Of a stretch of 64,000 nucleotides of DNA, positions 9,399-52,940 are shown in pieces. The stretch covers positions 307,880-371,879 of the forward strand of contig CAYPDT010000001.1 in NCBI GenBank assembly GCA_964409615.1. Direction: 5' to 3'. Made by a program: the position numbers and the translations under genes. This stretch comes from an uncultured Candidatus Saccharibacteria bacterium. GTDB taxonomy: Bacteria; Patescibacteriota; Saccharimonadia; Saccharimonadales; AWTP1-31. Below the pieces are notes generated by a model. That model did no database searches, was not told the origin of the DNA, and was given only the letters and a program-made list of their open reading frames with translations. Position 1 is the first letter of the stretch. Every line of letters begins with the position of its first letter.

Positions 9399-10064
9399 TT
9401 AAGTATCTATATTCTCCGAGACCACGATTACTCGGGCGTCATACGTTTTTGTAGTCTTGTTATATTTGCCCGCACAAGTTATAAGATTAAGTTGCTTAGC
9501 AATAGTACTGTCTTTTATAAAAAGAGCTTTATCCGCTTCTTTTGCAGATACAGTAGATACCGATTTTACCTTGAAACTTCGGACAGATTTATCGCCAAAA
9601 GTAACCCTAAAGGTGTCATCCTTTTTTAGGTTTCCAAGGTTATAAAAAACTCCTTTAGCGTATACACCATTTACATGACCGTCGATAATACTGAGGCCTG
9701 GGCCTCCTGGAAGCGATCCTTTAGCATACCACCCTGCCATATGTACATTGCCCGGTGCAACCATTCGATTTTGTTTATCTACGCCAACTTGCTGTATGAA
9801 CCCTTTAGCCTTAATCGATGGTAATTCTATAGATAATGGCTTATCTGCCGGAACGCTAAAGCTACCAGGAACCTTCTGTTCGCTAGGCGTATCAGACGTC
9901 TCAGATGCTACTACTTGAGCGGGTGGCACTCCTCCATTCCGAATCCCGTAAAAATCTCGAAGCATTAACAGACCATAGCCTACCAACAGGAGACCGATAA
10001 CAAAAGATAACCTCCGAATTGAGCGACGTGTGAGAAGTGGTAATCTTTTTTTACTACGAGGCAT
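9399..10064 (-). CDS. Sortase (class F-like)
   Basis: N-terminal TM anchor, catalytic His in IIDGHVNG, Cys in LNLITCAG, and Arg in YDARVIVVSE. Confidence 0.8.
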   Translation of the reverse strand: MPRSKKRLPLLTRRSIRRLSFVIGLLLVGYGLLMLRDFYGIRNGGVPPAQVVASETSDTPSEQKVPGSFSVPADKPLSIELPSIKAKGFIQQVGVDKQNRMVAPGNVHMAGWYAKGSLPGGPGLSIIDGHVNGVYAKGVFYNLGNLKKDDTFRVTFGDKSVRSFKVKSVSTVSAKEADKALFIKDSTIAKQLNLITCAGKYNKTTKTYDARVIVVSENIDT

Positions 10065-11826: not shown

Positions 11827-11897
11827 GTGGAGTGTTCCCTGTTTGTTGTTTACGCTTGTGGTTATTGTAGCATGTGGGCCTTGATCGTATGTGATTG

Positions 11898-14800
11898 TTA
11901 ACCTATAGGTGTGACTACGGTTGGGGCAAACCCTGTTGGGCTTGAATGACTTTGTGGAATCGTCACAGAAACGGTAGTGCCTTTTCCAGGAGTACTTTGG
12001 ACAGTTATGCCTCCGCCCAGTTTCTGCAGAATCATGCGGGTGATGTACAAGTTCAGTCCTAGCCCCGGGTGATCAAAAGTTGTCGAATCTGTACCGCGAG
12101 TTAAAGGTTCGAAAAGATGTGCCATTACCTCTGGTGACATACCGGCGCCATTGTCACGTACTGTTATGAGCGTTTTGCCACCAACAGATTTACTGCTAAT
12201 AGTTACTGCACTATTGGGATTGCTAAATCGAATAGCATTTTCGACTGTTGATCGAATAATCTGTGCCAGTTCTTCTGGCTGCATTTGCACAACAGAGTTA
12301 GAGCTAAGTAAATTGCTTACGGCCACCCCATTTTCGGCAGTCAGCTTAGACATTAACGGTGCAATATTTTGCTCGTAATCGTGTTTGACTGAAATATTTG
12401 GTGCGGGACCGCCCACTACACTAAAACGGTTTACCTTTCCAAGTGCCTCTGATAATTGGACTAATTGGCCGATTCCGTTAGTAAGCAGCTTGGTATCGGG
12501 GAACTGCTCTAGACCTGCTGTACCAGACTGTAGTGCGCTGGCGTGGGAAGCTAAACTGGTAGCAGCATCGGCTACAAAGGTCTTCTTTTGATCCAGTAAT
12601 TGCTGCTCGGTTGCTAGTTGTTGTTTTCTTTGGGCGTGAAGTTGTCGCTGTTTTTTCCAGGCCATAAACGTTACGAATATAGCAATCGCACCAAAGAATC
12701 CCCATATTAATTGATTCACGTATCGTCCCCAGCTATGATCGTAGGATTTATTAAAATACAATACCAGATCTGTTACTGCCACGACCCCAGCGATGCCAAC
12801 TAACGGCACCCACAACTGTTTGTTTGATATGGCCAGGACTTCGCCAGAAACTACCGAACGATCTCCAGATACTAATGCTTGCTCTGCCTGAAGCGTGAGG
12901 TTATTTGATGTTGCTTGCAGAGCGACTAGCTTAGCCTTGAATTGGGCAATAAATTCCGGCTGCAATGCATGCTTCGATGCAATCAACTCTAAAGCGCCGT
13001 TCATAATACTAAGCGGCGTATTAAGATAATGAGTAATTATAGCCAAGAAATCCGAGACTGATTGTCTGGTAGTAATAACTTTTGTCAGTAAGTCGTTCAT
13101 GACTTTCTGATAACGATATTCGCGCCATGCCCGGTAGGTATAGTACAGCGCCAACAGTAGCAACCAAGACAAAAAGAAGTACGGCAGCGGATTGACTTTT
13201 GGATCTCTAGCTATGCGAGGTAGGCCGAGAGGTAGTTCTTCTTCTGGAATCTTTGATATTTCTAGCAATTTTGGCTGATCTGGTTGTGGAGACTCTTCTG
13301 AAACGGGGCTGGGTGTGGTCGTAGTTGTTCTTGGACGAGATGGACGTGTTGGTCTGGTCGGGGTTGCTGGCGTGTTTGAAGTGGGGGCAGTAGGAGAAAC
13401 TGGTTGAGCTGGTGTGCTTGGCGTTTGCACATCGAATACCCCTAGCACCCAAGTGCTTTGACCAACCGCGTTTATAGCAGACACCTGGAAGTCATACCGA
13501 GTCCCGGGACTAAGACCAGAAACGATATATGACGTGCTGGTGCTTTGAGGATGGACGTATTCTTGCCATTGACCGGTAGAGTGTAGCCGGTATTGGATGC
13601 GGTAATCAATAATTGGCGTACCTCCATCATTGGCTGGCGGTTGCCAAGATAGTGCAATGCTGGATGTAGTTGGAGTTCCACCTAAATTACGTGGTGGGCC
13701 TGGCAGACTTTCGCCCAAAACGAATGTTGGGTAGGTCGCCACTTGGCTATACCATACCGGTGTCGTAAAGTCCCAGGTATTTAGGGGAGGGTTGGTTGTA
13801 TTATTCCTAAAATAATTTGGTGCCTGATTGTTGCTATTAACCGGTTTACAGACCGCGGCGTCATCATACTGGCTTGCTGTTACAACCGTATCGGCGCCAG
13901 GATTAATCTGATCCTCAACCTCTAGCCAGTTTGCGCATGGAGCACCCACCGTAAGCGATGCATCGAAATAGTTATTTATTAGGTAATTTGGGGCAGCGCT
14001 TGGAGCAACTGTACCTTCACCTTCGTTAAATATATGGAAGAACTGGCCAACAAAAACACCTTCCTTAACCCCACTTACATTTGTTATTATCGCGGCACTG
14101 AAAGAGTTACTTATACTACTTTGGAAGTCTGGGTTATTAGGATCGTCAATTATTCCAACTACCCCCACAAGACCTCCAGTATTCGACGAATAGAAGGCTT
14201 GCGCAACGGCTGGAATTTGGGTAGCAAACTGAGGCTCTTCGTTGCTAAGACTCCCTGATGCATATGACGAAGCAATATCTGTATGGTCTGCAACTCCAAC
14301 AAGGCCCCCGACAGACGAGCCAATCTCGATATAGCCACCTAAATCATCGTACGGAACGGTGGTAACAGCACCAGCAACCGAGCCCGTAGCATAGGTGTTA
14401 GTTAGGGCTATCCGAGTCTGCCCGTAGTCAACGCTGGAGGTACCTCCAATCAGCCCACCCGCCGCGTATCCACCCTGTACCGAACCCGTCGCGAACGAAT
14501 TTTGAACGGCCACCTGCCCCTGAGCAAAGCCTATCAAGCCGCCAGCACCAACACTGCCAGCACCATTTATTGCGTAGCCGGTACCGGATGCCGTACCAGT
14601 AGCAGAAGTGCGGTTAATCACGGCTGTTCCTGCCGTTCGTATGTCCCCAATCAAACCCCCAGCCCTAAAACCCGAAGATGCACTATCTATGAAATTATCC
14701 GAAGGTCCAACGCTACCCGTTGCATACACATCTTCAATTGTATGGTTATAACCTTGTAATGAGCCGATTGCCCCGCCAGAAAGCGCGCCACCATCCCGTC

Positions 14801-17800
14801 CTTCGATAATGACCATGCCAGTGGCATAGCTGTCGCGCAGGACACTGGCCGAAGCTGTCTGGGAAACCGCAATATTTGCACCAATCAAACCCCCAGCCAT
14901 TGCTATGACGCTATCGCATTCATCTATTTGACATGCCTGATTAATACTTGCTGTCACCAATCCTGTAGCGTAGACTCCTTCGATCTTAGACCAACCCACA
15001 ATCATTCCCACCGAACCACCAACAATCGGCCCTCCAACCGTATCAACCAGAGGACTTACGGCAGAAAAATCTATGACCCCAGTACTGTAAGAGTCTTGAA
15101 TTCGCAACGCACTAGTCAAGTTATTTCCGCCCGTTACGCCACCAACCAATCCTCCCGCCGCACCAGAAACTCCGCGCGCCGCTTGGTTGCCGTCTTCAAC
15201 AGTAATATCGCCCGTTGCAAAAGAGTCAGCAATATCAAGCAAAGTGGCCGAACCTACAAGCCCCCCGGCATAAGATACTGTGCCATTCGAAACGGTTACG
15301 TCCATCGATGAGCTAGAGTCTTGCACCTTAACACCCCTCACCAAGGAGGCTTCTGGATCGGCGGGGCTTACAGTTCCTTGATTGGTGCTAAAGCCAACAA
15401 GCCCACCGCCAGCCCCTTCGCCTAATTGAATCTGCCCCGTAGAGTTACCGTTCGTAATGGTCAGGGATGAGTCGTTGGAACCACCCACTAAACCCCCGGC
15501 AAATGCAGGATCGGAATTCCCACCAGAAGTTGGACAAGCAATTGTGCCGTCATATGCCGAATCTTCTATTGCAACCGTGCCGACCGCCGTTACTCCAATT
15601 AACCCTCCAGCCCCGTCGCTGCATGTCACAGTACTGTTCATATCGGAGTTAGCATTACGAAGCGAGATTGCAGCATCTGACATAGCACCCCCGATAATTC
15701 CCCCTGAAAGACTACTGTCTAAAATCGTGCCGTGCGATTGAACGTCCTGCATGGTAAGCTCGGATTGCTCAACATTTACGTATACCATACCCAATATGCC
15801 CCCACTGGTGCCAGGAGACTGCACCACCCCTGTATAGGCAATATCCTGCCATAATACCGACCCATCAAAGCCAGTACTATCAAAATCAGATAATGTGCCT
15901 ACAATACCTCCAGTAAAATCTTCCCCGATAACATCCCCGGCAACTGTAATGTTGTCTAAAATTGTGTCTGGAGAGGCAGAGGCAATCAGTGTCGCTGCAG
16001 GAACATCGTTGGACAACATGCTTGTAATAGAAGAATCTGTTAAAGTAAGGTTCCGAATTTCGGCACTTTGGGCAAAGGAAAACATGCCAACCGCTTGGTA
16101 GCTGGCATTTGCCGGAATATTCATTTGCAGGTCGCTAATAGTAAACCCTTGGCCGTCAAGAGTCCCCTGGAACGGCGTATTGGAATCTCCCACAGGTACC
16201 CACCCCTCGCCCCCATTCCAGGTCAGTGTATCGCTACAGTCAATATTGCCAACAAGATGGAAAACGCTGCCCCTATACTGATTTAGTGCATCTTGCATTT
16301 GCTGACAGTCACTTAAGCCAATAAATACTTGGAAATTCTGAACACCGCTCCATGCCCCTTGGCCGTAAGAGTTTACGGCAGCTATTCGAAAGTCGATACT
16401 TTGTATTACCCGTGCTTCCGCCTGAATAGCAAGTACAATCGCCTGTGCCAAATCGGTATCGGTTGTATTGGTGCTATCGAAACTCAAGTCTGTTCCGGTA
16501 CCATCTACAATAGTAGTCCACGTACCGTTATTGGCCGCCCACCCATAGTTTTGGAGCTCAGTTTGGGAAGCAGCCCAATCACTGCCAGGACGGGGTTTGA
16601 ACTGAATAACGTAATCGGTAATTGGGGCGCCAAGATATGGTACTTGCCAATCGAGCTTAGGGAAAGAAAACGGTGCAAACTGGTTGGTTTGTTCCACTCC
16701 ACTTACCACCATATTTCGCGGCTCAGATGGTAACTGACTAGTGCTAACGTTTTCTAGAACTTCCCAATCCCCTTGACCGATTGCATTAACTGCGGCAACT
16801 CTAACATCGTACATTTGACCAGCAACCAGCCCTGCTATTAGCTGAGACCGATCAGTCGATGGTGATCGACTAACACTATTCCAGGAACTATTGCTATGGA
16901 GCTTATACTGCACTGCGTAATCGGTGAGTGGGGTGTTGCCATTCAGTGTTGGTGCTAGCCACTGGGCAGTTAAACTCGTGGGATTTGCACTGCTAGTCGT
17001 TATAGCTCTCACCTTGCCAGGTAACGTAGGTGCCGCCGGCACCTGTGAGATAAAGACAGGGGTAGACGAAGTGACCACCTTCCAAACGTTTGTGAAATCC
17101 CACACTTGGTTTCCCCCGACCCTAAACGGTGCATTGGTAGAGTTATTATAAAAATAGTTTGGCTGCGAATTATTAACGTTAACCGCCGAGCAAAAACCAT
17201 TGGGCGTCTGCTCGGGTAAAAATGCACTGAAATCCCCATCGGTATTTGCTCCAATACAGGCACTTATTCCGATACGAGAGACGTCAATAAAATTTCCGCT
17301 GCCAGAAATATTTACACCAAATGGAGGATCGGCATTTTCTTCGTATATCACTACGCCAATGAATCCACCAAATGCCTCACGCTCCATTGGACCAGTCGAT
17401 ATCGTCTGTGATCCAATGGCAAATGAATTGTTGATTTCAGTCGCCCCTGCCATTGCTGCAAAACCACCTGCCAAAACGACAGAAGGGTCTAGCTCAGGAC
17501 TACGGGTAATTGAAATATCCATAGAACTATAGCTATTGTCTACTGTACCTCCTAATGCTTGGCCGAATAATCCGCCGGCAAACATGGTGATTGCCCCTTG
17601 GGTATAAGCACCGGATATCGTACCAGTAGAGTACGAATCAGAGATGCTCGAAGAGTAACTTACCAGCATCAAACCGCTAGCGATAGCCGCCTTACCACTG
17701 TCTCCATTACTATAACTATTGTTGGTAATATCCATATCGACTGATATCCTAGTTGCCGAACTAAACATAAACAGGCCAACAAATCCGCTGGCATGAATAT

Positions 17801-18728
17801 TTCCACCTGTACCCTCGCAGAAAACCGTCCCTGAAACTGAAACATCACTGAATGAGGAATTACTAGTCTGTGAAGCAATGGGCGCCAAAACAACATCAGC
17901 ATTGTCTGTTGCAAGATCTACATTGGTAAGTTTTACATTTGTAACCGAAGCACCGATAGCAAACCCGAGTAACCCTGACTCGGTATCGTCAGTAAGTATC
18001 CGCTGGTACAAACCATCTATTGCATAACCATTACCTTCCAATGTGCCGGTGAATTCTTGGCCGCCGCTGCCATTTCCAACCGCCACAAATCCAGCACCAC
18101 TATTCCAGGTACTTGTTGCCGTGCAATCTATTGGTCCGGTTAATTCGTAATGGCCCGCTCTATCGTCTTGCATTTCTTGTAGTTGTTCGCATGTCGATAC
18201 TTGGTATGGCTGTTCGGGACTTCCTAACCCACTTCCCGAAAAAGCCTGTGCTGCAGGAAAACCCACCATGGCGATAACTGCAATAAATACCGCTACACAC
18301 GCCTCAGCAACAGCCAGCCAGTAAAATGCAGGTCTCCAGCGGTAATGAAAACGTGGGAACACAACCACGCGCAAATGGTGCAATAAGCGATACTTAGTTT
18401 TTGGTGCAATTCTTATAAGTGGCTTCTTGTGGTGTTGGTAGTCCATCCACATATACAGAAGAGAACCTAAAGATAAAAGCACAAGACTAGACAGCGGCGA
18501 CCACAAGAACGAGAAATTTGTTATCTGGCTTTCGCTGGACTCAATTAACCGACTAACAAATTTACTATATTCTGGTTTGACACGTAAGTAGATCAAGGCA
18601 GCAATTGAGGCCAGCATAACAAAAATAGGCAACATCTTAACACGTTGCCGATACATCCTATCTCCAAAAGCGCCAGCCCTATCCGCTAGGCGTTTACGCT
18701 GAACAATTTTTACAGTCGTCTTCGTCAT
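11898..18728 (-). CDS. Giant (2276 aa) membrane sensor: GLUG-repeat/FN3 adhesin-like ectodomain fused to a histidine-kinase core
   Basis: One uninterrupted ORF. It begins with three N-terminal TM helices. Dozens of GGL[VI]G (GLUG-type) repeats follow, with three FN3-like domains (for example LPGPPRNLGG...YRIQYR...YDFQVSAINAVG). Next come a Pro/Thr linker and a TM helix, then an H-box-like segment (ITHYLNTPLSIM) and two more TM helices. The HATPase_c motifs follow: N box ENAIRFS, G1 VRDNGAGM, F FEPLTRG, G2 GLGLNL. Confidence 0.8.
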   Translation of the reverse strand: MTKTTVKIVQRKRLADRAGAFGDRMYRQRVKMLPIFVMLASIAALIYLRVKPEYSKFVSRLIESSESQITNFSFLWSPLSSLVLLSLGSLLYMWMDYQHHKKPLIRIAPKTKYRLLHHLRVVVFPRFHYRWRPAFYWLAVAEACVAVFIAVIAMVGFPAAQAFSGSGLGSPEQPYQVSTCEQLQEMQDDRAGHYELTGPIDCTATSTWNSGAGFVAVGNGSGGQEFTGTLEGNGYAIDGLYQRILTDDTESGLLGFAIGASVTNVKLTNVDLATDNADVVLAPIASQTSNSSFSDVSVSGTVFCEGTGGNIHASGFVGLFMFSSATRISVDMDITNNSYSNGDSGKAAIASGLMLVSYSSSISDSYSTGTISGAYTQGAITMFAGGLFGQALGGTVDNSYSSMDISITRSPELDPSVVLAGGFAAMAGATEINNSFAIGSQTISTGPMEREAFGGFIGVVIYEENADPPFGVNISGSGNFIDVSRIGISACIGANTDGDFSAFLPEQTPNGFCSAVNVNNSQPNYFYNNSTNAPFRVGGNQVWDFTNVWKVVTSSTPVFISQVPAAPTLPGKVRAITTSSANPTSLTAQWLAPTLNGNTPLTDYAVQYKLHSNSSWNSVSRSPSTDRSQLIAGLVAGQMYDVRVAAVNAIGQGDWEVLENVSTSQLPSEPRNMVVSGVEQTNQFAPFSFPKLDWQVPYLGAPITDYVIQFKPRPGSDWAASQTELQNYGWAANNGTWTTIVDGTGTDLSFDSTNTTDTDLAQAIVLAIQAEARVIQSIDFRIAAVNSYGQGAWSGVQNFQVFIGLSDCQQMQDALNQYRGSVFHLVGNIDCSDTLTWNGGEGWVPVGDSNTPFQGTLDGQGFTISDLQMNIPANASYQAVGMFSFAQSAEIRNLTLTDSSITSMLSNDVPAATLIASASPDTILDNITVAGDVIGEDFTGGIVGTLSDFDSTGFDGSVLWQDIAYTGVVQSPGTSGGILGMVYVNVEQSELTMQDVQSHGTILDSSLSGGIIGGAMSDAAISLRNANSDMNSTVTCSDGAGGLIGVTAVGTVAIEDSAYDGTIACPTSGGNSDPAFAGGLVGGSNDSSLTITNGNSTGQIQLGEGAGGGLVGFSTNQGTVSPADPEASLVRGVKVQDSSSSMDVTVSNGTVSYAGGLVGSATLLDIADSFATGDITVEDGNQAARGVSGAAGGLVGGVTGGNNLTSALRIQDSYSTGVIDFSAVSPLVDTVGGPIVGGSVGMIVGWSKIEGVYATGLVTASINQACQIDECDSVIAMAGGLIGANIAVSQTASASVLRDSYATGMVIIEGRDGGALSGGAIGSLQGYNHTIEDVYATGSVGPSDNFIDSASSGFRAGGLIGDIRTAGTAVINRTSATGTASGTGYAINGAGSVGAGGLIGFAQGQVAVQNSFATGSVQGGYAAGGLIGGTSSVDYGQTRIALTNTYATGSVAGAVTTVPYDDLGGYIEIGSSVGGLVGVADHTDIASSYASGSLSNEEPQFATQIPAVAQAFYSSNTGGLVGVVGIIDDPNNPDFQSSISNSFSAAIITNVSGVKEGVFVGQFFHIFNEGEGTVAPSAAPNYLINNYFDASLTVGAPCANWLEVEDQINPGADTVVTASQYDDAAVCKPVNSNNQAPNYFRNNTTNPPLNTWDFTTPVWYSQVATYPTFVLGESLPGPPRNLGGTPTTSSIALSWQPPANDGGTPIIDYRIQYRLHSTGQWQEYVHPQSTSTSYIVSGLSPGTRYDFQVSAINAVGQSTWVLGVFDVQTPSTPAQPVSPTAPTSNTPATPTRPTRPSRPRTTTTTPSPVSEESPQPDQPKLLEISKIPEEELPLGLPRIARDPKVNPLPYFFLSWLLLLALYYTYRAWREYRYQKVMNDLLTKVITTRQSVSDFLAIITHYLNTPLSIMNGALELIASKHALQPEFIAQFKAKLVALQATSNNLTLQAEQALVSGDRSVVSGEVLAISNKQLWVPLVGIAGVVAVTDLVLYFNKSYDHSWGRYVNQLIWGFFGAIAIFVTFMAWKKQRQLHAQRKQQLATEQQLLDQKKTFVADAATSLASHASALQSGTAGLEQFPDTKLLTNGIGQLVQLSEALGKVNRFSVVGGPAPNISVKHDYEQNIAPLMSKLTAENGVAVSNLLSSNSVVQMQPEELAQIIRSTVENAIRFSNPNSAVTISSKSVGGKTLITVRDNGAGMSPEVMAHLFEPLTRGTDSTTFDHPGLGLNLYITRMILQKLGGGITVQSTPGKGTTVSVTIPQSHSSPTGFAPTVVTPIG

Positions 18729-18830
18729 ATATACTCTTATGGTTAATCCAATTATACTTGAATTACCGACTTCTTTCAGACATTTTGTAATTTACTCCAC
18801 AATAAGTACAATTAATCACGAGGACTTACA

Positions 18831-19232
18831 ATGAAAGTTTCATCAAAATTCCGCCACTTAGCGCCATACATCTGCCTTGCATTAGTTGTAGTTGGGATGA
18901 CTACTTATGTCGGATATCACAAGAGATACACCAACAGGCAGGACGAATCGAGCAAGCAAGCTAAAGTACAAACCTTAGATAGCGCCTTCGAGAACTCAAC
19001 AAGCTTCTTCAAACGTAATATTACTGGTACAGTCAGTGAAGTCAACGCAAAACAGATTACTATTGTATCGTCTAATTCTACCGAACAAACCTTTAACTTT
19101 ACGCCAAAAACTATATTCCAACGTGCAGGCCAGAAAATATCCGTAACAGATTTAAAGAAAGATCAGCAAGTAACTGTCTTAAGAAGTCGAATTGACTATT
19201 CACAAGCGGCAGGAATTACAATCAATAAGTAG
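18831..19232 (+). CDS. Hypothetical membrane-anchored protein
   Basis: A 133-aa ORF with an N-terminal TM helix and no recognised motif. Confidence 0.5.
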   Translation: MKVSSKFRHLAPYICLALVVVGMTTYVGYHKRYTNRQDESSKQAKVQTLDSAFENSTSFFKRNITGTVSEVNAKQITIVSSNSTEQTFNFTPKTIFQRAGQKISVTDLKKDQQVTVLRSRIDYSQAAGITINK

Positions 19233-19233
19233 T

Positions 19234-19470
19234 CTAGTCAGCTAGCAGTAACATTGAGACATCTTGGAAAAGAGCATGGTCTTGTGCTGTACGCAAATCG
19301 AAGGGAATAGCACCTAGCCTTTCGAATTCACCCTGGGCCCAAGCCAAACTCTGCTCATAAGTCATGCCTATATTAGTTTCGAGCATTTCCGGGGTCAAGC
19401 TAATTATTGCAGGAGTGGCAAATCCATTGGCTGCTGCCGCAAGTTCCACTTCCCCAATCTGTTCCAACAT
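19234..19470 (-). CDS. Hypothetical small acidic protein
   Basis: A 78-aa ORF with no motif. Confidence 0.35.
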   Translation of the reverse strand: MLEQIGEVELAAAANGFATPAIISLTPEMLETNIGMTYEQSLAWAQGEFERLGAIPFDLRTAQDHALFQDVSMLLLAD

Positions 19471-19504
19471 GTTACTAGTTTACTATTCTTCTCGATATAT
19501 GCAA

Positions 19505-19790
19505 TTATTCTTTAGAGTATTTTTTGGCTGTAAAAACAAGCAGGCAAAATCCTGAAATCACCGCAAATACACCAATCAAGACAGACTCACGGCCCAAGCC
19601 AGTGTTCGGGGCGGCTGCATTAGTACCTGCATTATTAGTCGATGCCGAAGAGACCAATGCCCGAGTCGTAATAGCCCAGGGTAAGGGCAGGTTTGCACTT
19701 GCCAATGCTATTGCCGGTAACGGTGGCACGGAGATCTACGTTAACCAGTAGCTTCACAAGCCCCGGGCGAGGCCCCAAACTGCTCACTCG
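19505..19790 (-). pseudogene. Degraded 3' remnant of a choice-of-anchor-Q-like surface-protein gene (retains the APNTG sorting signal)
   Basis: The 74-aa ORF ends ...NAAAPNTGLGRESVLIGVFAVISGFCLLVFTAKKYSKE, which is the same sorting-signal architecture as the three full paralogs. The upstream sequence matches the conserved C-terminal domain only weakly and in shifted frames. Confidence 0.5.
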
Positions 19791-20327
19791 TAAAGTACTA
19801 ATGATTGCAGGAGAAACATCAATGGATATATTTGAACTTTTTTGACCTTGAAATTCTTTACGCTTTTATCACCAAAGGTAACGGTAAATTTTTCATCTGC
19901 TTTGAGTTTATCGATGTTATACAAAATCCCTTTGGCGTACAGGCCATGCACAAGGCCATCCAAGATACTGAGGCCATTTGCACCTACTAATACTCCACCG
20001 GTGTACCACCCAGCCATATGCACGTTGTTTGGCACCACCATTCGGTTTTCTTTATCTACCCCGACCTGCTGGATGAAACCTTCGGCTTTTATGGTTGGTA
20101 ACTGGATAGACAATGGCTTGTCTGCGGGAACGCTATAGTTTTTTTTGGGGGAGCTGCTTAGTCGGTTCATCTGTCGAAACCGTAGCCACGGCGTGCACTG
20201 GCGTTACGCCAGCATGCTGAATTTTGTACCATTTGCGTATGGCATTTACACCGACACTAATCAGCAATATGCCAACTACGGGTGCTACGAGCCGAGTTTT
20301 TTGCCGAATAAAAAGAGCCCGCCACAC
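19784..20327 (-). pseudogene. Sortase pseudogene (paralog of 9399-10064)
   Basis: Two ORFs in different frames. 20133-20327 encodes the TM anchor and 19784-20170 encodes the core, which aligns with the intact sortase (SVPADKPLSIQLPTIKAEGFIQQVGVDKENRMV...). The frames switch at a C5A8 homopolymer on the coding strand (20139-20151). IDGH is replaced by LDGL, and the TC/Arg-containing C-terminus is missing. Confidence 0.7.
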
Positions 20328-20378
20328 CCCTGCTAGATTTCTCGGTGTTTTTCTTTAAACATTTCTTGTTGACGGCCA

Positions 20379-21884
20379 TCAACCTATTTTTACCGCAAAT
20401 CGCTTGCGAAATGCATAGGCAATCATACTAATGCCGAGTGTGCTAGCAGCAAATGCCATCAAGCTCGAAGCAGTTTTTGCACCAGTGTTAGGGGCTGCAG
20501 CACCACCAGCATTGGCGTTGGTTGTGGTTGCCGCACATACAGCACCCTCGAACTGATAAGCACCGACGGATGGGCAAGTGTTAGGACGAGCGACGCCGCG
20601 GGCATCGGTGGTAACGCCAAGAACTGCGCTACCCGAAGCGATGGCAGGAGAACCTGCGAGCAGAGCTCGAGTTGGAACACTTCCACCGTTGTTCTGGAGA
20701 ACCCCCAGCGTTGAAAGGATACTGCTTATATTTTGTCTGTCGGATGGTTGGGTAAATGATGTACACGAAGCGTCATCAGATATATTGTGTCCCAGGGAGT
20801 TGACTACCACAACAACATCAGTTCCAGAGCCGCCTATAACATCCGTTAAATCTGCAACCGTACAGTTAGAGGACACACCATCATTTAGATTATCTGCCAT
20901 CAAGCTATTAGTAACCTCAACGGTGGCACGTGCTTGGTCGCCAGGAGAGACAGCACTACCGGCGGCATAAAAAGCAGCCGACTTAACACCAAGACTACCC
21001 CCTGTGCCAGTTTTACCCCTGAGACCAGTGATTGTGACATTCTGAACTTTAGTATTAACTGTCGCGCTTCCATCACTACCAAGCGCATAACTTCCAAATG
21101 GTATCGCGTTATCATCAGCTGTAAAGTCATCAACAGTCACATTGGTGACAATTGTATTGATGGTCGTATCAACAGAATCACCGTATGCTAAAGAGATAAT
21201 TCCGAATATACTGTCGCCGACAGCTGTACTATGTATGTCCGACAGCGTAATGTTATTCAGATTAGCGTTGATTATACCGTTACCCCGCTGCTCTACGCGA
21301 ACCAGGGATAATCCACCAGTGTTATTGATGTTATGCACGTATACATTATTTATTTCTATCTCGTGCGTCGCACTGTCACTGGCTATGGTAGTAATATGTT
21401 CTCCTGTAGTGGAGTCCGATCCTTGCCCGTCAACTTCTATGTTGCTTATGCGGATGTTACCGTTCTCTGTGCGTATTGCAAAGCTGCGGAATGCTGTTAT
21501 TTTTAAGTTATCAATTGAGATGTCCACACCTTGAGATGTAAATACTGCGTACTGACCTGCACCCCCACTAATGACAGTACTAGACATACCTGCCCCTTGG
21601 ATACGAACTGGCTCTGTAATGAGCGGCAGATCAACAGATAACGTGAATGTTCCTGCAGGAATGGTGATCGTATCGTTGGTTCCATATGCTGCACCGGTTT
21701 TTACACAACCATTTCCATCCGCGCCGTTATTGGTAGCCTCAATTGCTTCGTTGAGTGTACAGTTGGTATCTACTGCTAGTGTCGCAGCGTGAGCCCTACC
21801 GCTGCCCAAAGCAAGCACTGTCAGAAAGACAAAAGCGGCTAGGACAAATTTATTTGTTTTGCTTAGGTTGAGAATGAGTTGCAT
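20379..21884 (-). CDS. Secreted beta-helix surface protein, choice-of-anchor-Q-like, APNTG sorting signal (paralog 2)
   Basis: Shares the signal peptide (LSKTNKFVLAAFVFLTVLALGSGRAHAATL), the C-terminal domain (LQNNGGSVPTRALLAGSPAIASG...TDARGVARPNTCPSVGAYQFEG) and the APNTG plus TM plus basic tail with 10069-11826. Confidence 0.75.
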   Translation of the reverse strand: MQLILNLSKTNKFVLAAFVFLTVLALGSGRAHAATLAVDTNCTLNEAIEATNNGADGNGCVKTGAAYGTNDTITIPAGTFTLSVDLPLITEPVRIQGAGMSSTVISGGAGQYAVFTSQGVDISIDNLKITAFRSFAIRTENGNIRISNIEVDGQGSDSTTGEHITTIASDSATHEIEINNVYVHNINNTGGLSLVRVEQRGNGIINANLNNITLSDIHSTAVGDSIFGIISLAYGDSVDTTINTIVTNVTVDDFTADDNAIPFGSYALGSDGSATVNTKVQNVTITGLRGKTGTGGSLGVKSAAFYAAGSAVSPGDQARATVEVTNSLMADNLNDGVSSNCTVADLTDVIGGSGTDVVVVVNSLGHNISDDASCTSFTQPSDRQNISSILSTLGVLQNNGGSVPTRALLAGSPAIASGSAVLGVTTDARGVARPNTCPSVGAYQFEGAVCAATTTNANAGGAAAPNTGAKTASSLMAFAASTLGISMIAYAFRKRFAVKIG

Positions 21885-21926
21885 ACGGAATTCCTATTTT
21901 TATTTACGCTTGTGCTTAGTGTAACA

Positions 21927-23461
21927 CTATGCACGTTTTTTGAGAGCATACCCAAGGATGGATAGTTCAAGAACAGAGGCTATGCCAGCCATCGAGGTTG
22001 AGGCAGTTTTTGCTCCGGTGTTAGGGGCTGCAGCACCACCAGCATTAGCATTGGTGGTGGTTGCAGCGCAGACCGCTCCTTCGAACTGGAAGGCTCCAAC
22101 GGATGGGCAAGTGTTAGGACGAGCTACGCCACGAGCGTCTGTTGTTATGCCCAAGACCGATCCTCCAGAAGCTATGGCAGGCGAGCCTGGTAACAGTGCA
22201 CGGGTCGGCACTGCGCCACCATTGTTTTGAAGAGGACCGAGGGTGGAATATACGTTGGACACATTATGCTGATCGGTTGGAGAAGTAATCGAACCAGCAC
22301 AACTGTTATCGTCAAAAATGTTGTGACCCAGGGAATTGACCGAAACCACTCCTGTTCCAAGTCCACTAGCTAATGCTGTGAAATCTCCTATAGCACAGTT
22401 GTTTGATACTCCATTACTCTTGTTGTTTGCCAGAAGACTGTTACCTACCGAGATTGTACTTGTGGCAGTTGTGCCCGCTCCAACACCTAACGATGCTGCA
22501 TAAAAAGCTGCCGAAGCTGCTAATCCGGTTGGGTCTAGTGTACCGTCTGTCCCGGTGACAGTGACATTGTTAATGATTGTATTCACAATTGCATCACCAT
22601 TATTGGAATAAGCGTTATTGGAGAACGGCGCAGCAATTGTAGTAGTCGAATAGACATCATCGATTGTAATATTAGCAGCGTTAGCGTTGAGTGTACCAAA
22701 ACCACCAAAGACGTTATCCCACAAGCCGATTGAAAGCATTACCCCAATAGTACCGCCCCCAGATGTCGTATTTGAGATGTTTGCAATGGTAATATTTTGC
22801 AAGGATACATTTGACACTCCACCTTGCCCCTGGTTAATTAACAACGCTCCAACAACATTCGCCGAACCTACAATGTCATGTACATAAATGTCACTAAGAT
22901 TAACCGTTCTTGTACCCGAAGAAAGTGATTGCAAGAATATTGCAAGAATATTGCTTCAAATTCGCCACTTGATGGCAGGGCATCGCTACCATCTACTTCT
23001 ATATGATTGATATTTAGAGTCTCATCTGTGTTAGACAAGATTGCGTAGCCGCTATACGCGATAACCTTTAAGTTACTGATGGTCGCAGATATCCCAGTAC
23101 CGATTTCTATTCCATTATACTGTCCATTGTCACCATCAATAATTGTCTGACTCATGCCAGCACCGTTAATAACTATATCTTCGGTGATTACAGGTATGTC
23201 TGCAGTTAGTGTATAAGTGCCCGCCGGGATATTGATAGTGTCATCGGTGCCGTAACTGCCTACTGCCGTACACCCAGACTGGTCAGCTCCTGCGTTTACT
23301 GAATCAATTGCAATCGGAAGCGTGCAACCCCCTGTTACGTTTAAGGTTGCAGCATTTGCTCGTCCGCCACCGATTGCTAGCACCGCCAAGAATGCGAAGG
23401 CCGCAAGAATTAGTTTGTTTGTTTTACTGAGGCTAATGATCGATTCGTAAATGCTCTGCAT
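21927..23461 (-). pseudogene. Choice-of-anchor-Q-like surface protein paralog 3, frameshifted by an 11-bp tandem duplication
   Basis: The N-terminal half (ATG at 23461, MQSIYESIISLSKTNKLILAAFAFLAVLAIGGGRANAATL...) and the C-terminal half (21927-22934) lie in different frames. Removing one copy of TTGCAAGAATA joins them as ...EFEAIFLQSLSSGTRTVNLSDIYVHD..., giving about 507 aa. Confidence 0.75.
22929..22950. repeat. Perfect 11-bp tandem duplication TTGCAAGAATA x2 (followed by a partial TTGC)
   Basis: Read directly in the sequence. 11 nt is not a multiple of 3, and the duplication sits exactly at the frame break of the gene. Confidence 0.9.
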
Positions 23462-23511
23462 GGATGTTTCCTGTTTTTGTTTATGCTTGTGCTTATTGTA
23501 TAATCTTGGGT

Positions 23512-25833
23512 CTAGCGTCGGGCATAGCGAGCAAGGTGCTTCTTTTTTGATACGTACATGGCCATACCCGCAGACACAATCATTAACACCGCCAGCCCTC
23601 TGAGCGCTGTTTGGCCGGTAACCGCCAGTGGAGACGTACTGCTGCCACTGGGCTGAGTCGTTGCCGCCCCACAAACTTTGCCACTCGACAGTACTAAGCC
23701 AAGACTGTAGCTAGCAGTCTGTGTGTCGGTGGTGTCATCGTTCAGCTGCGTGGTAATACTGTTGGCAGTATTGGTGATAGTAGGTACATTACAGTCATCT
23801 TGCGCTACTGTTTGGTAGCAAATCTGGGCATCATCTCCCTGGAAGGTTACCGATGCCACGGGCACGACGTCGCCACTCCATGGATTGTTGTTGAGTGCCA
23901 CGAATAATACATCTACGCTAATGTCTTGGGTGTTACCCGAGTATGGCAATGATGAGATATCGAGCTCGCCTGCAGTAGAGACGATGTCAACCTGGTCGAA
24001 CCCAGACACAACTGCTCCCGTACTGTCGTGCACCGTTACCAGTATTTGCTGGAAGTCGGATAACGTAAGATTGCTGACTTTAATTTTGTCCCAGCCAGTT
24101 ACGTTACCATCACCCTCACAATAGTAAGCAGAGGGGTTGACAGTAACCGTCGAGATTGTACGCCGACACGGCACTGAACCGTTATCGGCAGAGAATGACC
24201 AGAGCCAACCCGAGTCTCCCAATCCTAGTAAGCACCCGGTTTCGTCAATGGCATAACCATAGTCCCGGGTATTACCCCCGTTCACGGCGGCTGAACCAGT
24301 CCATGCACTCCACAGTGTTTCGCCATCGCCGTTACTACCCCAGCCAGCGCATTCATCGGCTGCATCCCAGTTATAGCAACCGGCAGCCCCACTATTTGTA
24401 GCTGGTGCAAATTTACTGAACGGGAAAATAGTAATGTCGTCACCTGCACTGTTGGTAGTTTGAATCTCTTCGTACGACGCCATGAGTCCAGCCAGGCCAG
24501 TCGCATCTGCCACAACGTTAGTAACCAGATTAGCGTCTGCACTATAGTTAACCCCCGTAGATTTGTCGTAGCAGCGAGTAAGTGTAGTGACTGTGAATGC
24601 ATCTACAAAAAATACGCAAGGGTTGTTGGCGTTATTGGCATCCTTGAAAATGCCAGTGATTAGCTGCGTGAACGAACCTGATCCGCCAATACTTGGTGTC
24701 GACCAGCCCGAACAGGACCCATTGGACGCAGCTGGATCAAAACACACGAGGCGGCTATTCTCCCCTAAGTTTGAGGTAAAGATATCTGCCTTGAATGAAT
24801 AATTAATAGGGGCATAGATTTTGCCGTCGATAACTTCAGCTGAGCCAACCGGACCATATGTCGGAGAAATAGCGTTGTGTTGATTTGGGTCATAGGTAGG
24901 CAGGCTGTACGTCGTAGCTAGGTTACGATTGCCAAAACCTCCGCATGTTGTAGAAAAGGTTGCCGGGTCGAAACTGTACATAACTAGGTTAACATCCCAG
25001 GCGTGCAAGCATGATCCAGACTTAACTACACCAAGTAGTCGAGACGGCTGATCAGGCCCAAGTTTTGTGCCTGTCGCCGAGAGTTGAGTATAGCCATTGC
25101 CACTGCAAAATTGGTCATTTGCCAAATCCCAACAGACTATGCCATAGCCCGCGTCTCGCTGGGCCGCAAAAAATAGTCGGCTGTTCTGCACGTCGGTGTA
25201 GGTCATAGGATTAATTGAGGTATAGAAGTCGGTTTGACCAGACAAATTGAGTGCAACGGGATAGTTGTTGCAGGCATTCGGGATTTGCGATGAACAGACA
25301 ATTTCGTTTCCAGACAGCGTACTATGGTGTACTAAGCCGAAGTAGCGCCCTTTAAACGGAATTGGAATATAGGCATCTTCACCCGTACCAGACTGTGCGG
25401 TACTCGTAAGCGGTTCAGACGATATCTGACCAGCTCCATTACCAGGCTCGGAGACGACCGGATTACTAAACCGCAGGTTAGTTGTTGAAACACCAGTATC
25501 TGACGTGTTGTAGGTAGCTCCGTTATCTATTGAATACTCGCTGCTCCAACCCGGTGGCACCTGTGCGCTACCCGAAACAAACTTGGAGCCTGTTGGTATG
25601 GCATTGGTGATAGTGGCCGATGCTGGCCCGCCACTAGCATTGTTATAGCCCAATGCCCATGCTGCATTCTGCCCGGCTCGCACCTGGGTAGTATTGTTAT
25701 TGCCCGAATCCCGACCAGTCAGGCTCAACGAACTACTTGCAGCAAAGACTGATTGACCATTTGCGAAGACTAATACAGCCAATGCAAGCAAAAGCCAGAC
25801 CCTATGAATTTTTTCTAAAATTTTTGTTCTCAT
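23512..25833 (-). CDS. Large Cys-rich secreted surface protein with LAVTG sortase sorting signal
   Basis: Signal peptide ...ANGQSVFAASS. The C-terminus is PLAVTGQTALRGLAVLMIVSAGMAMYVSKKKHLARYARR, an LAxTG motif plus TM plus basic tail. Confidence 0.7.
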   Translation of the reverse strand: MRTKILEKIHRVWLLLALAVLVFANGQSVFAASSSLSLTGRDSGNNNTTQVRAGQNAAWALGYNNASGGPASATITNAIPTGSKFVSGSAQVPPGWSSEYSIDNGATYNTSDTGVSTTNLRFSNPVVSEPGNGAGQISSEPLTSTAQSGTGEDAYIPIPFKGRYFGLVHHSTLSGNEIVCSSQIPNACNNYPVALNLSGQTDFYTSINPMTYTDVQNSRLFFAAQRDAGYGIVCWDLANDQFCSGNGYTQLSATGTKLGPDQPSRLLGVVKSGSCLHAWDVNLVMYSFDPATFSTTCGGFGNRNLATTYSLPTYDPNQHNAISPTYGPVGSAEVIDGKIYAPINYSFKADIFTSNLGENSRLVCFDPAASNGSCSGWSTPSIGGSGSFTQLITGIFKDANNANNPCVFFVDAFTVTTLTRCYDKSTGVNYSADANLVTNVVADATGLAGLMASYEEIQTTNSAGDDITIFPFSKFAPATNSGAAGCYNWDAADECAGWGSNGDGETLWSAWTGSAAVNGGNTRDYGYAIDETGCLLGLGDSGWLWSFSADNGSVPCRRTISTVTVNPSAYYCEGDGNVTGWDKIKVSNLTLSDFQQILVTVHDSTGAVVSGFDQVDIVSTAGELDISSLPYSGNTQDISVDVLFVALNNNPWSGDVVPVASVTFQGDDAQICYQTVAQDDCNVPTITNTANSITTQLNDDTTDTQTASYSLGLVLSSGKVCGAATTQPSGSSTSPLAVTGQTALRGLAVLMIVSAGMAMYVSKKKHLARYARR

Positions 25834-25967
25834 GGTAACTTACGCACCTTTTCAACCTGTTTCAGGTTCAGTGTAGAATATTTTACAAACATAAGCAATA
25901 CATTTTACCAACATTCGACGTCTGTTGATGCACCGCAAATCGTTATATCCTAATTATTTGCGAAATT

Positions 25968-26078
25968 TTATGCCTGGGATTTAACTCGCAGAAACGCCAA
26001 CACAATCAAGCCGATAACGACTACTAAGATACAAATAAGCAGTGGAATGAGTCCCTCTTGATTAAGTTTACGCTTCAT
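25968..26078 (-). CDS. Possible 36-aa single-TM peptide
   Basis: Hand-translated MKRKLNQEGLIPLLICILVVVIGLIVLAFLRVKSQA. It is below the ORF-track cutoff and there is no other evidence. Confidence 0.25.
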   Translation of the reverse strand: MKRKLNQEGLIPLLICILVVVIGLIVLAFLRVKSQA

Positions 26079-26181
26079 TAGTTCTATAGTACTTATTCTT
26101 ATATAAGAAGTAAACCGTCTTTGATGCCTGTTAGCTGCAGGCTGTCATCTGTTATTATAGTTATGGTTAGTGAGGTAATAA

Positions 26182-28719
26182 TTGAACAACAAACAACTCT
26201 ACAATTTAGATATCAATCAAGCGTTAGCATCGTTACATAGCTCTCGGAGTGGGCTCGACCCGCATACCGCTGCCCAACGACTAAAACAATATGGCCCCAA
26301 TGAGTTGACTGCCAAAAAATCCCCACTGTGGAAACGAATTATCGAACCGTTTGCCAGTTATTTTGCAATGGTGATTATTGCAGCTGCCCTGCTGAGTGTC
26401 TACGAGCGTAAATGGTTCGAGGCGATTATTATTAGCGCCATCCTCTTGATTAACGCCATAATCTATTACTTCCAACAAATATCGGTTGGCCGAGTTCTTA
26501 AAACACTGCGTGCTCAAGACAAACAAAATGTAGACGTTATTCGCGCCGGCCATACGCAATCTATCGCAAGCAGTAAACTTGTGCCTGGCGACATCGTACA
26601 CGTTACCGAAGGCATGAAAATTCCAGCCGATGGGCGCTTGATAGACGTCAGTCATTTGCAAGCTGATGAATCGTTGCTGACCGGAGAATCATTACCCATT
26701 CACAAGATTGCCGGTGAACTGAATTCTGTAGAAGATTCCGTAAAGGAAGTCTACGACCAAAAGAATATGTTGTTTAAGGGCAGTTACGTGCGAGCTGGCA
26801 CGGGCCTACTGCTCGTCAGCCAGACCGGCAACAATACTCAATTGGGTACCATTAATAAACTTGCGTCCGAGGCAGATGAAGGCAAAACACCAATCGAACG
26901 AAAGATAGATGAACTAACCAAAAAACTACTGATTGGTATTGTGATAGTTTCGGTAGCAGTATTTATTCTGGCAATAGTCCGCGGTATTCACCTAGACGAA
27001 GCCCTGCGTTTTACATTGAGCTTAATTGTGTCGGCCGTGCCGGAAGGTCTGCCGGTAGCCATGACATTAGTATTGTTATTAAGTGCCAATGGTATGGCCA
27101 AACAAAAAGCCCTGGTTAAGAAATTGTCAGCACTAGAAACTCTCGGCGCCGTAACGCTTATTGTGACTGATAAAACAGGCACAATCACCAAGAATCAGTT
27201 GTCGGTAGCCGACCATTACACGCATCATACGGGTTCCGACAAATTTTTCCTGGCAGTTCGAGCCAGCCTGAATGGCACTAAAGATCACAGCCCCGATCCA
27301 CTGGATGCCTTGCTGGTTGGGGCAGCGGGTACTACAAAAATCCCTGCTGGCTGGAAGAAGATACATGAGTTTCCTTTTGATCAACAGCAACGCCTTAGTG
27401 GAGCTGTCTGGCAGAATGGCAAGCAATATCAATTGTTTGTTAAAGGTGCTCCCGAAAAAATCATGAGCCATACTCCACATCTGCGTGGCCTCAATGTGGC
27501 ACTTTCTGACTTTACTTCGAAAGGATATCGGACCATCGGCTTTGCTAGTAAAAAACTCTCGACCATCCCAAAAGAGTTAACAACCAGCACCTTAGCCAAT
27601 ATGCAGTTCGATGGCTTTGTTGGGTTGAGCGACCAACTGCGGCCGAACATTCAAAAAGCTATTGAAGAGGCTCACCGAGCAGGAATTAAAGTAGTGATGC
27701 TAACGGGCGACCATATGGAAACCGCCGGTTATGTTGGTAGACAAACTGGTATCATTTTTAACAATACCCAAGCAGCAGATAGTAGCAGTTTGGCGAGTGC
27801 GTCGGGCGACCGCATCCGCACCGCTTTGGAAACCACTACGGTATTTGGAAGAGTCTTGCCGGAGCACAAATATGCCTTACTGAAAGCCGTGAAGGGTCAC
27901 GAGATAACTGCCATGACTGGCGATGGTGTTAACGACATCCCGGCATTAGTTGAAGCGGATGCCGGGCTGGCCATGGGTAGTGGTGCCGATGCCGCAAAAG
28001 ACGCCAGCGATGTAGTACTGATTAATAGTAACTTCATGACGATAATCAACGCTGTTCGCACCGGTCGTACAGTCTTAGCCAACATCCGAAAGATGGTGGT
28101 GTATTTATTAGGAACCAGCGGTGGCGAAGTACTCACCATGCTATCTGCCCTGCTTCTTAATATACCGTTACCTATCACAGCAGTCATGGTACTGTGGGTC
28201 AACTTGGTGACTGATGGCGTGTCGGTAATACCGCTGGGCCTAAGTCAAAGCGAGACGTATCAAATGCGCCAAAAGCCCGACAATCCTAACGCGCCGTTAC
28301 TCAATAAGCTGCACATAAGCCGCGCACTTGTACTGAGCGTAACCATGGCAGTGACTGTGTTAATAATGTTCAAGCTCCACCTGCCGAAAGGCCTGGCCTA
28401 TGCTCAAACTATTGCTTTCTTGAGCCTAATTGTTATCCAGTGGGCAAACGCATTTAATATGAACTTCGAGCATCATTCTTGGCTTCGGAATTTCATAAAA
28501 CCCAATTTCAAACTATGGGCAGCAATTAGCGGTTCTATTGTTCTGAATATTATATTGTTCTGCACACCACTCCGTGGCTACTTCAGCCTTGCCACATTAG
28601 AATTAAGTGATGCCGTGCGCGCCATTGTCATACCCTGCGCCGTAGCATTTGTAATGTGTGACGTGCATAAATTGGTTAGCTGGAAGTTCCGTAGCCACCA
28701 ACTACAAAGCACAATTTAG
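26182..28719 (+). CDS. Cation-transporting P-type ATPase (type II-like)
   Basis: Has the DKTGTITKN phosphorylation motif, TGES, MLTGDH, TGDGVNDIPAL and about 10 TM helices. The start is TTG, preceded by GTGAGG. Confidence 0.9.
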   Translation: MNNKQLYNLDINQALASLHSSRSGLDPHTAAQRLKQYGPNELTAKKSPLWKRIIEPFASYFAMVIIAAALLSVYERKWFEAIIISAILLINAIIYYFQQISVGRVLKTLRAQDKQNVDVIRAGHTQSIASSKLVPGDIVHVTEGMKIPADGRLIDVSHLQADESLLTGESLPIHKIAGELNSVEDSVKEVYDQKNMLFKGSYVRAGTGLLLVSQTGNNTQLGTINKLASEADEGKTPIERKIDELTKKLLIGIVIVSVAVFILAIVRGIHLDEALRFTLSLIVSAVPEGLPVAMTLVLLLSANGMAKQKALVKKLSALETLGAVTLIVTDKTGTITKNQLSVADHYTHHTGSDKFFLAVRASLNGTKDHSPDPLDALLVGAAGTTKIPAGWKKIHEFPFDQQQRLSGAVWQNGKQYQLFVKGAPEKIMSHTPHLRGLNVALSDFTSKGYRTIGFASKKLSTIPKELTTSTLANMQFDGFVGLSDQLRPNIQKAIEEAHRAGIKVVMLTGDHMETAGYVGRQTGIIFNNTQAADSSSLASASGDRIRTALETTTVFGRVLPEHKYALLKAVKGHEITAMTGDGVNDIPALVEADAGLAMGSGADAAKDASDVVLINSNFMTIINAVRTGRTVLANIRKMVVYLLGTSGGEVLTMLSALLLNIPLPITAVMVLWVNLVTDGVSVIPLGLSQSETYQMRQKPDNPNAPLLNKLHISRALVLSVTMAVTVLIMFKLHLPKGLAYAQTIAFLSLIVIQWANAFNMNFEHHSWLRNFIKPNFKLWAAISGSIVLNIILFCTPLRGYFSLATLELSDAVRAIVIPCAVAFVMCDVHKLVSWKFRSHQLQSTI

Positions 28720-51798: not shown

Positions 51799-51897
51799 CA
51801 GGCTATATTTTACTCTGATATGCAAACCTAAGCAACTTGAGTCGTAGGTTAGCCGTTGCGAGCATGCATGATGCGGTATGATATATACATAATGCAC

Positions 51898-52923: not shown

Positions 52924-52940
52924 TCCATTAGCTAGGCCCA

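Follow-up and report, generated by a model that had tools for sequence, protein, structure and literature searches.

The closest described relatives of the locus reported here are pseudogenes produced by microhomology-mediated (slipped-strand) duplication. In these a perfect head-to-tail unit is bounded by a short direct repeat, the unit length is not a multiple of three, the duplication, as the gene's only lesion, has become fixed in a lineage, and sister strains keep the gene intact. Our locus shares these properties, with GCAAT as the direct repeat. Nothing essential differs from ordinary slipped-strand pseudogenes; what is particular is the host, an ultra-small Saccharibacteria genome, and the occurrence of the allele in many samples. 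Pseudogenes are comparatively scarce in Saccharibacteria genomes.

Simple-sequence contingency loci, such as Neisseria opa (CTCTT) and Haemophilus lic1 (CAAT), are a second group for comparison. There, as here, a repeat in the coding region sets the reading frame of a member of a surface family. Classical contingency loci contain many units of 1–7 bp, and their copy number varies between near-identical isolates. The present locus, in contrast, has two 11-bp copies, and no copy-number polymorphism was seen among assemblies.

A third comparison is with cap3A of Streptococcus pneumoniae (type 3 capsule), where a perfect tandem duplication within the ORF likewise constitutes the OFF state and a surface structure is affected. 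The pneumococcal duplications are reportedly many and independent, of varied length and position, and revert measurably in culture. Our locus, in contrast, shows a single duplication that arose once and does not vary among assemblies, and no revertant was seen. As the work of Waite et al. (2001) is presented in PMC11163986, tandem duplication turns cap3A OFF and reversion of the duplication turns it ON. Ralstonia phcA is cited as a further tandem-duplication ON/OFF example in a preprint (bioRxiv 10.1101/2023.04.27.538605).

The locus described here lies in a stretch of 64,000 nt from an uncultured Candidatus Saccharibacteria bacterium, referred to below as the window. We read it as an ordinary fixed frameshift pseudogene of a sortase-anchored beta-helix family in a wastewater Candidatus Saccharibacteria lineage, and assign this reading a probability of about 80%. 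To our knowledge, no contingency locus has yet been shown to exist in Saccharibacteria or any other CPR episymbiont; in these bacteria, surface proteins are the expected mediators of host attachment.

Structure of the duplication and its effect on the reading frame

Two perfect TTGCAAGAATA units stand in tandem at window positions 22929–22939 and 22940–22950 and are followed by TTGC. The + strand around the site reads GTGA-TTGCAAGAATA-TTGCAAGAATA-TTGCTTC, and the one-copy junction is GAAGCAATATTCTTGCAATCAC. Tandem Repeats Finder reports the repeat at 22928–22954 with period 11, 2.5 copies and 100% matches. A period-11 scan of the window gives 16 consecutive matched positions; by a simple estimate of our own, a run of 16 matches is expected by chance about 1e-5 times per window (~64000 x 0.25^16). 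The periodic run reaches 22928–22954 because of a 5-bp microhomology, GCAAT. With A before and TTGC after the duplication, the ancestral one-copy sequence must already have contained GCAAT (coding orientation) twice, as a 5-bp direct repeat with copies 11 bp apart.

The frameshifted gene is 1535 nt long (mod 3 = 2), and the unit has the same remainder (11 mod 3 = 2). The number of units in the ORF sets the reading frame, one unit corresponding to an intact ORF of 507 aa. Removal of one unit yields a 1524-nt ORF in which ...EFEAIFLQ is joined to SLSSGTRTV... and no further stop is met. The 11-bp duplication is the sole lesion of the gene. A sequence-only reading of this DNA had already described the tandem duplication at 22929–22950 as perfect and as the only lesion, with the same frame arithmetic and junction, and the direct sequence and Tandem Repeats Finder bear it out on each of these points.

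The shift of frame at codon 175 falls midway through the beta-helix core (Table 1). The 197-aa fragment is the only one with a signal peptide and lacks both the choice-of-anchor Q domain and the sorting signal, and its product is presumably non-functional. The C-terminal ORF is probably not translated independently, because the local genes have AGGA-type ribosome-binding sites, the internal TTG has none before it, and the fragment carries no signal peptide. Internal re-initiation as a source of a second product was rejected on the same two points, the internal TTG without an AGGA-like ribosome-binding site and the C-terminal fragment without a signal peptide. An Rfam search of the whole window returned three tRNAs only, with no regulatory RNA near the duplication. 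Promoter and terminator consensus scans of 19500–26300 gave sites no more frequent than in shuffled sequence.

Table 1. Features of the frameshifted locus and its surroundings, in window coordinates.
Feature	Position	Strand	Remarks
11-bp tandem duplication	22929..22950	-	perfect; TTGCAAGAATA on +, TATTCTTGCAA in coding orientation
Whole frameshifted gene	21927..23461	-	repaired form: 507-aa beta-helix protein, putative signal peptide, choice-of-anchor Q domain, APNTG sorting signal
N-terminal fragment ORF, 197 aa	22868..23461	-	174 native residues and 23-residue out-of-frame tail YSCNHFLRVQERLILVTFMYMTL; stop at 22868
C-terminal 335 codons, original frame	21927..22934	-	intact
Intact 501-aa paralog	20379..21884	-	C-terminal anchor region near-identical
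Decayed sortase pseudogene	19784..20327	-	A8-tract frameshift; DGHV changed to DGLV; ~50 C-terminal residues gone
Upstream 773-aa protein	23512..25833	-	LAVTG-type sorting signal; independent anchor for sampling the locus; mosaic in some carriers
Third family member, 585 aa	10069..11826	-	followed by intact sortase
Intact sortase, 221 aa	9399..10064	-	follows 585-aa family member

Protein family, predicted fold and selection

Over their full lengths, the repaired protein and the 501-aa paralog align with 52% identity (E 6e-143), and the repaired protein aligns in the same way with its intact orthologs of 505–507 aa. Repaired protein and paralog both match NF041518 (NCBIfam, choice-of-anchor Q) with E ~1e-16, above the cut-off; in the repaired protein the match lies at residues 403–456 (E 2.5e-16, 59.7 bits, cut-off 25). 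The parallel beta-helix model TIGR03805 is matched weakly, far under its cut-off, and Pfam gives zero matches for the repaired protein, the 501-aa paralog and the 773-aa neighbour. At E <= 1e-10 there are 117 homologs, whose named sources are mostly Candidatus Saccharibacteria, and one homolog is annotated as an LPXTG-motif cell wall-anchored protein. The C-terminus of the repaired protein runs APNTG...KKRA. P474, T476 and G477, which form the P-x-T-G of APNTG, are invariant or nearly so in an alignment of 59 homologs.

The AlphaFold (AF2) model of an intact ortholog with 90% identity (P0001) has a mean pLDDT of 84 and a pTM of 0.77. It is laid out as an N-terminal helix (9–27), continuous strands (~35–370), a disordered linker and a C-terminal helix (480–505). 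Every match of a Foldseek search against the PDB is a right-handed beta-helix, found in PL6 lyases, AlgE epimerases, pectin methylesterases and tailspikes. The matches to these beta-helix enzymes are weak (E at least 5e-3, TM at most 0.3) and generic, and therefore no enzymatic function can be assigned.

From domain matches and model, the gene product is predicted to be a sortase-anchored parallel beta-helix surface protein with a choice-of-anchor Q domain. Like other NF041518 beta-helix proteins, the repaired form and the paralog combine this domain with a signal peptide, a body folded as a right-handed beta-helix and an anchor at the C-terminus; they differ in that the anchor here is a sortase-type xPxTG signal. 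Two sortase genes, one intact and one a pseudogene, are located nearby (Table 1), and PF04203 genes adjoin family members in related loci. With the NF041518 match, the beta-helix model, the APNTG anchor, and a third family member and sortase in the same window, the earlier designation of the gene as a surface-protein paralog is a fair one, and the claimed collinearity of the repaired gene with the 501-aa paralog holds over the full length.

Comparison with one-copy orthologs gives a dN/dS of 0.12–0.13, which points to purifying selection on the gene before the lesion. Only four substitutions postdate the duplication, three synonymous and one non-synonymous (a radical G495E in the anchor helix), and they therefore carry no power to show relaxed selection; the comparison of SNP density between pseudogene and flanks has only 4 segregating sites and no power either. 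A second stop or frameshift in the gene was found in none of the carrier haplotypes. Since the ORF is otherwise perfect in every haplotype, one precise deletion would fully restore the gene.

The two-copy junction in other samples

Besides the window, 14 distinct contigs from as many samples (JGI, Logan, ENA) have the identical two-copy junction, although fully independent observations are fewer than 14, as some carriers are possibly from the same projects (the JGI 33000453xx and SRR237024/5xx series). The carrier samples are 3300045347, 3300045350, 3300045353 and 3300045354 from JGI; SRR12404947, DRR685533, SRR14234080, SRR24742820, SRR23702505 and SRR23702459 from Logan; and ERZ28614995, ERZ15184844, ERZ15186094 and ERZ965056 from ENA, the last being a wastewater metagenome. 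At the protein level, 14 contigs yield a called protein identical to the 197-aa frameshift product, out-of-frame tail included, and 2 further contigs yield a variant differing by one residue; the sources in the protein collection are NCBI, JGI, Logan and ENA. In all same-lineage loci that were fetched, the gene is 99.8–100% identical to that of the window, has exactly two units and has identical flanks.

Retrieval through the frameshift product is biased, and therefore a second retrieval was carried out through the exact neighbouring 773-aa protein (P0131, P0133). By this route, which is blind to the site, two copies were present in 7/7 contigs reaching the junction. One or three copies were seen in 0/15 distinct lineage sequences (the window and the 14 contigs), counted at the level of consensus assemblies, where a minority of one-copy cells within a sample would be invisible. 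In the 14 samples, the lineage shows no allele other than that of the carriers.

One-copy alleles

Intact one-copy alleles were found in other strains only. Of the 10 proteins in the 90% cluster that includes the ortholog, five derive from the frameshifted allele as C-terminal fragments (270, 296 and 335 aa), and the other five are intact one-copy proteins: P0122 and P0126 with 507 aa, P0001 and P0120 with 506 aa, and P0119 with 505 aa. A cluster representative more than 90% identical to the repaired protein was not found. The collection of ~15 billion proteins does not contain the repaired protein itself, whether with Glu or with Gly at residue 495.

The closest one-copy alleles, L011 (ERZ15186117) and L014 (ERZ28615239), are 95.7% identical overall. 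Their differences are concentrated in the paralog-conserved ends of the gene (positions 1–81 and 1313–1535), and the 1.2-kb core at 82–1312 differs by 7 SNPs and the 11-bp indel only. Gene positions 390, 397 and 426, 86–122 nt upstream of the junction, are among the sites that set carriers apart from L011 and L014. Other family members flank these alleles on both sides. Because of this different context, they represent a different strain and not revertants. Among the assemblies retrieved, no one-copy contig near-identical to the carriers was found. A variable-gap pattern that detects 1, 2 or 3 copies was also applied to metagenome and genome contigs and returned five one-copy loci, which are 88% orthologs; both contig collections are without the carrier lineage, and these scans consequently say nothing on polymorphism among carriers. 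Variants of the neighbouring gene (P0134, P0145, P0139) come from strains that are more distant; there, different family members occupy the place behind the 773/774-aa gene, and the loci are uninformative for the duplication site.

Origin, age and spread of the duplication

The ancestral one-copy allele reads, in coding orientation, GAA-GCAAT-ATTCTT-GCAAT-CAC, with a 5-bp direct repeat at 11-bp spacing. In the 88% orthologs the corresponding sequence is GCTAT...GCAAT, a 4/5 match. The GCAAT repeat 11 bp apart therefore argues for a single slipped-strand duplication followed by inheritance, and it supports the slippage or duplication origin that had been proposed for the lesion. During replication the nascent strand would have slipped back between the two GCAAT copies, and the 11-bp unit would thus have been duplicated once. 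The extra 11 nt would then throw the frame at codon 175, and a product that keeps the signal peptide without the choice-of-anchor Q domain and the APNTG signal would leave the cell with no anchored protein.

All OFF alleles share the unit, its position and the haplotype backbone, and therefore have a single origin. The allele originated a single time, later than the separation from the L011-type strain, and was then inherited unchanged, through SNP diversification, recombination in the neighbouring gene and a 10-kb deletion. At least five carrier SNP haplotypes are distinguished by gene positions 6, 426, 536 and 1495: the window type, G6A, G6A + A1495G, G6A + A536T, and G6A + G426A. Taking L011 as outgroup makes A6, A426 and G1495 the ancestral states. 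The duplication in L007 sits on the ancestral A426 and is therefore older than the substitution at position 426. The window haplotype has since gained two synonymous changes and the radical Gly495Glu in the hydrophobic anchor.

Rearrangement is evident around the gene. L007, L009 and L010 have a common boundary at window position 24262; past it, their 773-aa gene shows strong divergence, which falls mostly at every third base and extends over a different length in each. In the DRR685533 contig, window position 20505 is joined to 10272, a 10.2-kb deletion that lies between 72-nt paralog repeats and leaves the two copies in place. The lesion had been called very recent. This is right in so far as it is younger than the divergence from the closest one-copy allele, 7 core SNPs away, but it predates the diversification of the carriers into at least five haplotypes, mosaics and a deletion variant.

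Interpretation

An ordinary pseudogene accounts for the locus best. Compared with intact orthologs the ORF is broken, and two copies are present in all close contigs. Two general considerations count against a fixed pseudogene: short tandem duplications are intrinsically revertible, and surface-protein families are the classic substrate of phase variation. The sequence-only reading had held that two copies without variation, together with additional inactivating mutations, would mark a plain pseudogene; the copies are indeed invariant across assemblies, but further inactivating mutations are absent from the gene. As a pseudogene, the locus provides a clean and well-dated case in which a short microhomology led to a frameshifting tandem duplication, and it shows turnover of a surface-protein family in a reduced Saccharibacteria genome. 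In annotation, the two ORF fragments are best joined into a single feature marked as a pseudogene.

Selection may also have favoured the null allele. The gene would then be a host- or phage-exposed adhesin of an episymbiotic Saccharibacteria lineage, lost adaptively or held OFF by a slow reversible switch. The duplication allele is nearly unchanged (0–2 SNPs in 1.5 kb) beside strongly diverged or mosaic upstream genes, and also in the 10-kb deletion variant. An allele so little altered in varied surroundings could have spread between strains by recombination under selection. We regard such an adaptive loss, or a switch held OFF, as unlikely.

A reversible duplication-based phase switch resembling cap3A was the candidate put forward by the sequence-only reading. 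Two copies would be OFF, and precise excision of one unit through slippage between the 11-bp repeats would give rise to an ON subpopulation, which would serve bet-hedging for host attachment or phage evasion. The perfect duplication as sole lesion, with the remaining ORF intact in all haplotypes, and the membership of the gene in a multi-paralog surface family adjoining sortases are in keeping with a switch. Two copies of 11 bp are, however, a weak substrate for slippage compared with the classical multi-copy tracts of 1–7 bp. Precedents exist in cap3A (PMC11163986) and, as cited in the preprint, in Ralstonia phcA (bioRxiv 10.1101/2023.04.27.538605). At the assembly level the switch nevertheless finds no support, as the carrier lineage shows no one- or three-copy allele among the 15 consensus sequences, the repaired protein is missing from the collection searched, and the OFF alleles, with the same unit at the same position, go back to one event. 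The OFF allele has moreover persisted through several substitutions, recombination and a deletion. Precise loss of a unit is physically possible and would restore the gene, but no evidence was found that it takes place at a biologically relevant rate. We therefore consider a switch of this kind quite improbable. The locus would be of greater importance if reads showed ON/OFF heterogeneity; as it stands, it cautions that a duplication restorable in frame need not be a switch.

Full-length protein might instead be made from the two-copy gene by recoding, that is, by a programmed +1 or -2 frameshift within the 23 codons before the premature stop. The downstream frame is open and intact, but nothing speaks specifically for recoding. 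GCAATATTCTTGCAATATTCTTGCAATCACTTTCTTCGG shows neither a slippery homopolymer nor any known shift motif, and judging from the model the product would have an inserted or garbled segment within a beta-helix strand. None of the orthologs has the duplication, nor do the closest one-copy alleles, and it is therefore not a conserved recoding site. Recoding was rejected on this account and is very improbable.

That the two-copy junction is an assembly or sequencing artefact in the genome of the window, an option also raised from the sequence alone, is almost inconceivable: the window does come from one 698,658-bp NCBI contig, possibly long-read assembled, and a neighbouring gene has an A8 versus A9 homopolymer difference between assemblies, but the same junction recurs in 14 other samples, among JGI, Logan, SPAdes-style and MEGAHIT-style contigs, some two-copy contigs have private SNPs, and a perfect 11-bp duplication is atypical as a homopolymer-type error.

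Other decay at the locus

The sortase pseudogene lies 1.6 kb downstream of the frameshifted gene. Its frameshift falls at an A8 tract, which is A9 in L001; an A7 or A10 tract would keep the frame. The DGHV motif altered in it is kept in three intact sortases, and the C-terminal residues that it has lost include the LITC(A/T)G Cys motif. Since this sortase gene is multiply lesioned, decay at the locus is not confined to the duplication. It is another, older pseudogene of the same functional system.

Probable recombination within the surface-protein region

A rearrangement of the sortase-anchored beta-helix family was found in L038, a contig from sample DRR685533 that carries the two-copy allele of the 11-bp tandem duplication. 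L038 is collinear with the window from position 30817 down to 20505 and then from 10272 down to 3765, and thus has a 10.2-kb deletion relative to window 10272–20505. Its endpoints are 72-nt repeats in two family members, located in the conserved 3′ part of each gene. Both the giant protein of 2276 aa and the sortase pseudogene are missing from this contig, where a hybrid 503-aa paralog created by the deletion lies beside the intact sortase. An assembly chimera at this junction seems unlikely, since in the window the two copies of the 72-nt repeat share no exact match longer than about 17 nt.

Similarity is unevenly distributed along the genes of the family. The 5′ ends, encoding the signal peptide, and the 3′ ends, from choice-of-anchor Q to the anchor, are far more alike among the three family members than are the gene bodies. 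When the frameshifted window gene is compared with its closest one-copy allele, the differences are concentrated in the same 5′ and 3′ ends. Paralog-like ends that also hold most of the differences from the one-copy allele are consistent with paralogs exchanging their ends through gene conversion.

Upstream, the 773-aa surface-protein gene contains mosaic divergence tracts (window 24262–25231) in L007, L009 and L010, three further carriers of the two-copy allele. All three share a boundary at 24262, with near-identity to the window on one side; beyond it about one fifth of the positions differ, mostly every third base, over diverged tracts whose length varies among the three contigs. The mosaic tracts with their shared boundary indicate that the 773-aa gene has recombined with more distant strains. 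A mosaic divergence tract at window 27648–28311 is present in one contig, L030, where 23 SNPs are clustered at the 3′ end of a P-type ATPase gene.

Gene order and content of the region

In the related strains examined (L037, L041, L015 and L021), the order of genes around the family differs in each. For instance, L041 has the 773-aa gene followed by genes for proteins of 580, 497 and 565 aa, while L015 has the giant protein followed by the 505-aa ortholog of the window gene, DUF3800 and a 500-aa protein. A resolvase gene and a replication-relaxase-like gene adjoin the family array in L041. Together with the strain-specific gene orders, these point to a surface-protein region that probably turns over rapidly and may possibly be mobile.

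Features of the surface-protein region (window coordinates)
Feature	Position	Strand
Intact sortase	9399–10064	
Giant protein, 2276 aa	11898–18728	minus
Sortase pseudogene, several lesions	19784–20327	minus
Similar ends compared	21927–22250, 23380–23461 versus 20379–20715, 21781–21884, 10201–10272, 11723–11817	

The giant protein is an unusual surface-sensor architecture at the same locus as the frameshifted gene. Transmembrane segments lie at its N-terminus and a histidine-kinase ATPase domain at its C-terminus, and the protein also contains repeats of beta-helix-like and fibronectin type III segments; the Pfam matches (fn3, HATPase_c) are those of its 2271-aa ortholog in L015.

The sortase pseudogene consists of two ORFs (64 and 128 aa) broken at an A8 tract (20139–20146). 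The tract is A9 in L001 (JGI) and A8 in L002 and L039; A7 or A10 would restore the reading frame. The pseudogene also reads DGLV where three intact sortases keep the DGHV motif, and it lacks the C-terminal ~50 residues and with them the LITC(A/T)G cysteine motif.

A second tandem duplication

The window contains a second perfect tandem duplication, of 13 bp (CCATTAGCTAGGC twice, 52925–52950), which suggests that short tandem duplications are a recurring mutation type in this genome. It is placed between the stops of two convergent genes, 51856–52923 (plus) and 52941–54206 (minus); the stop codon of the latter falls within the duplication, and no ORF is harmed.
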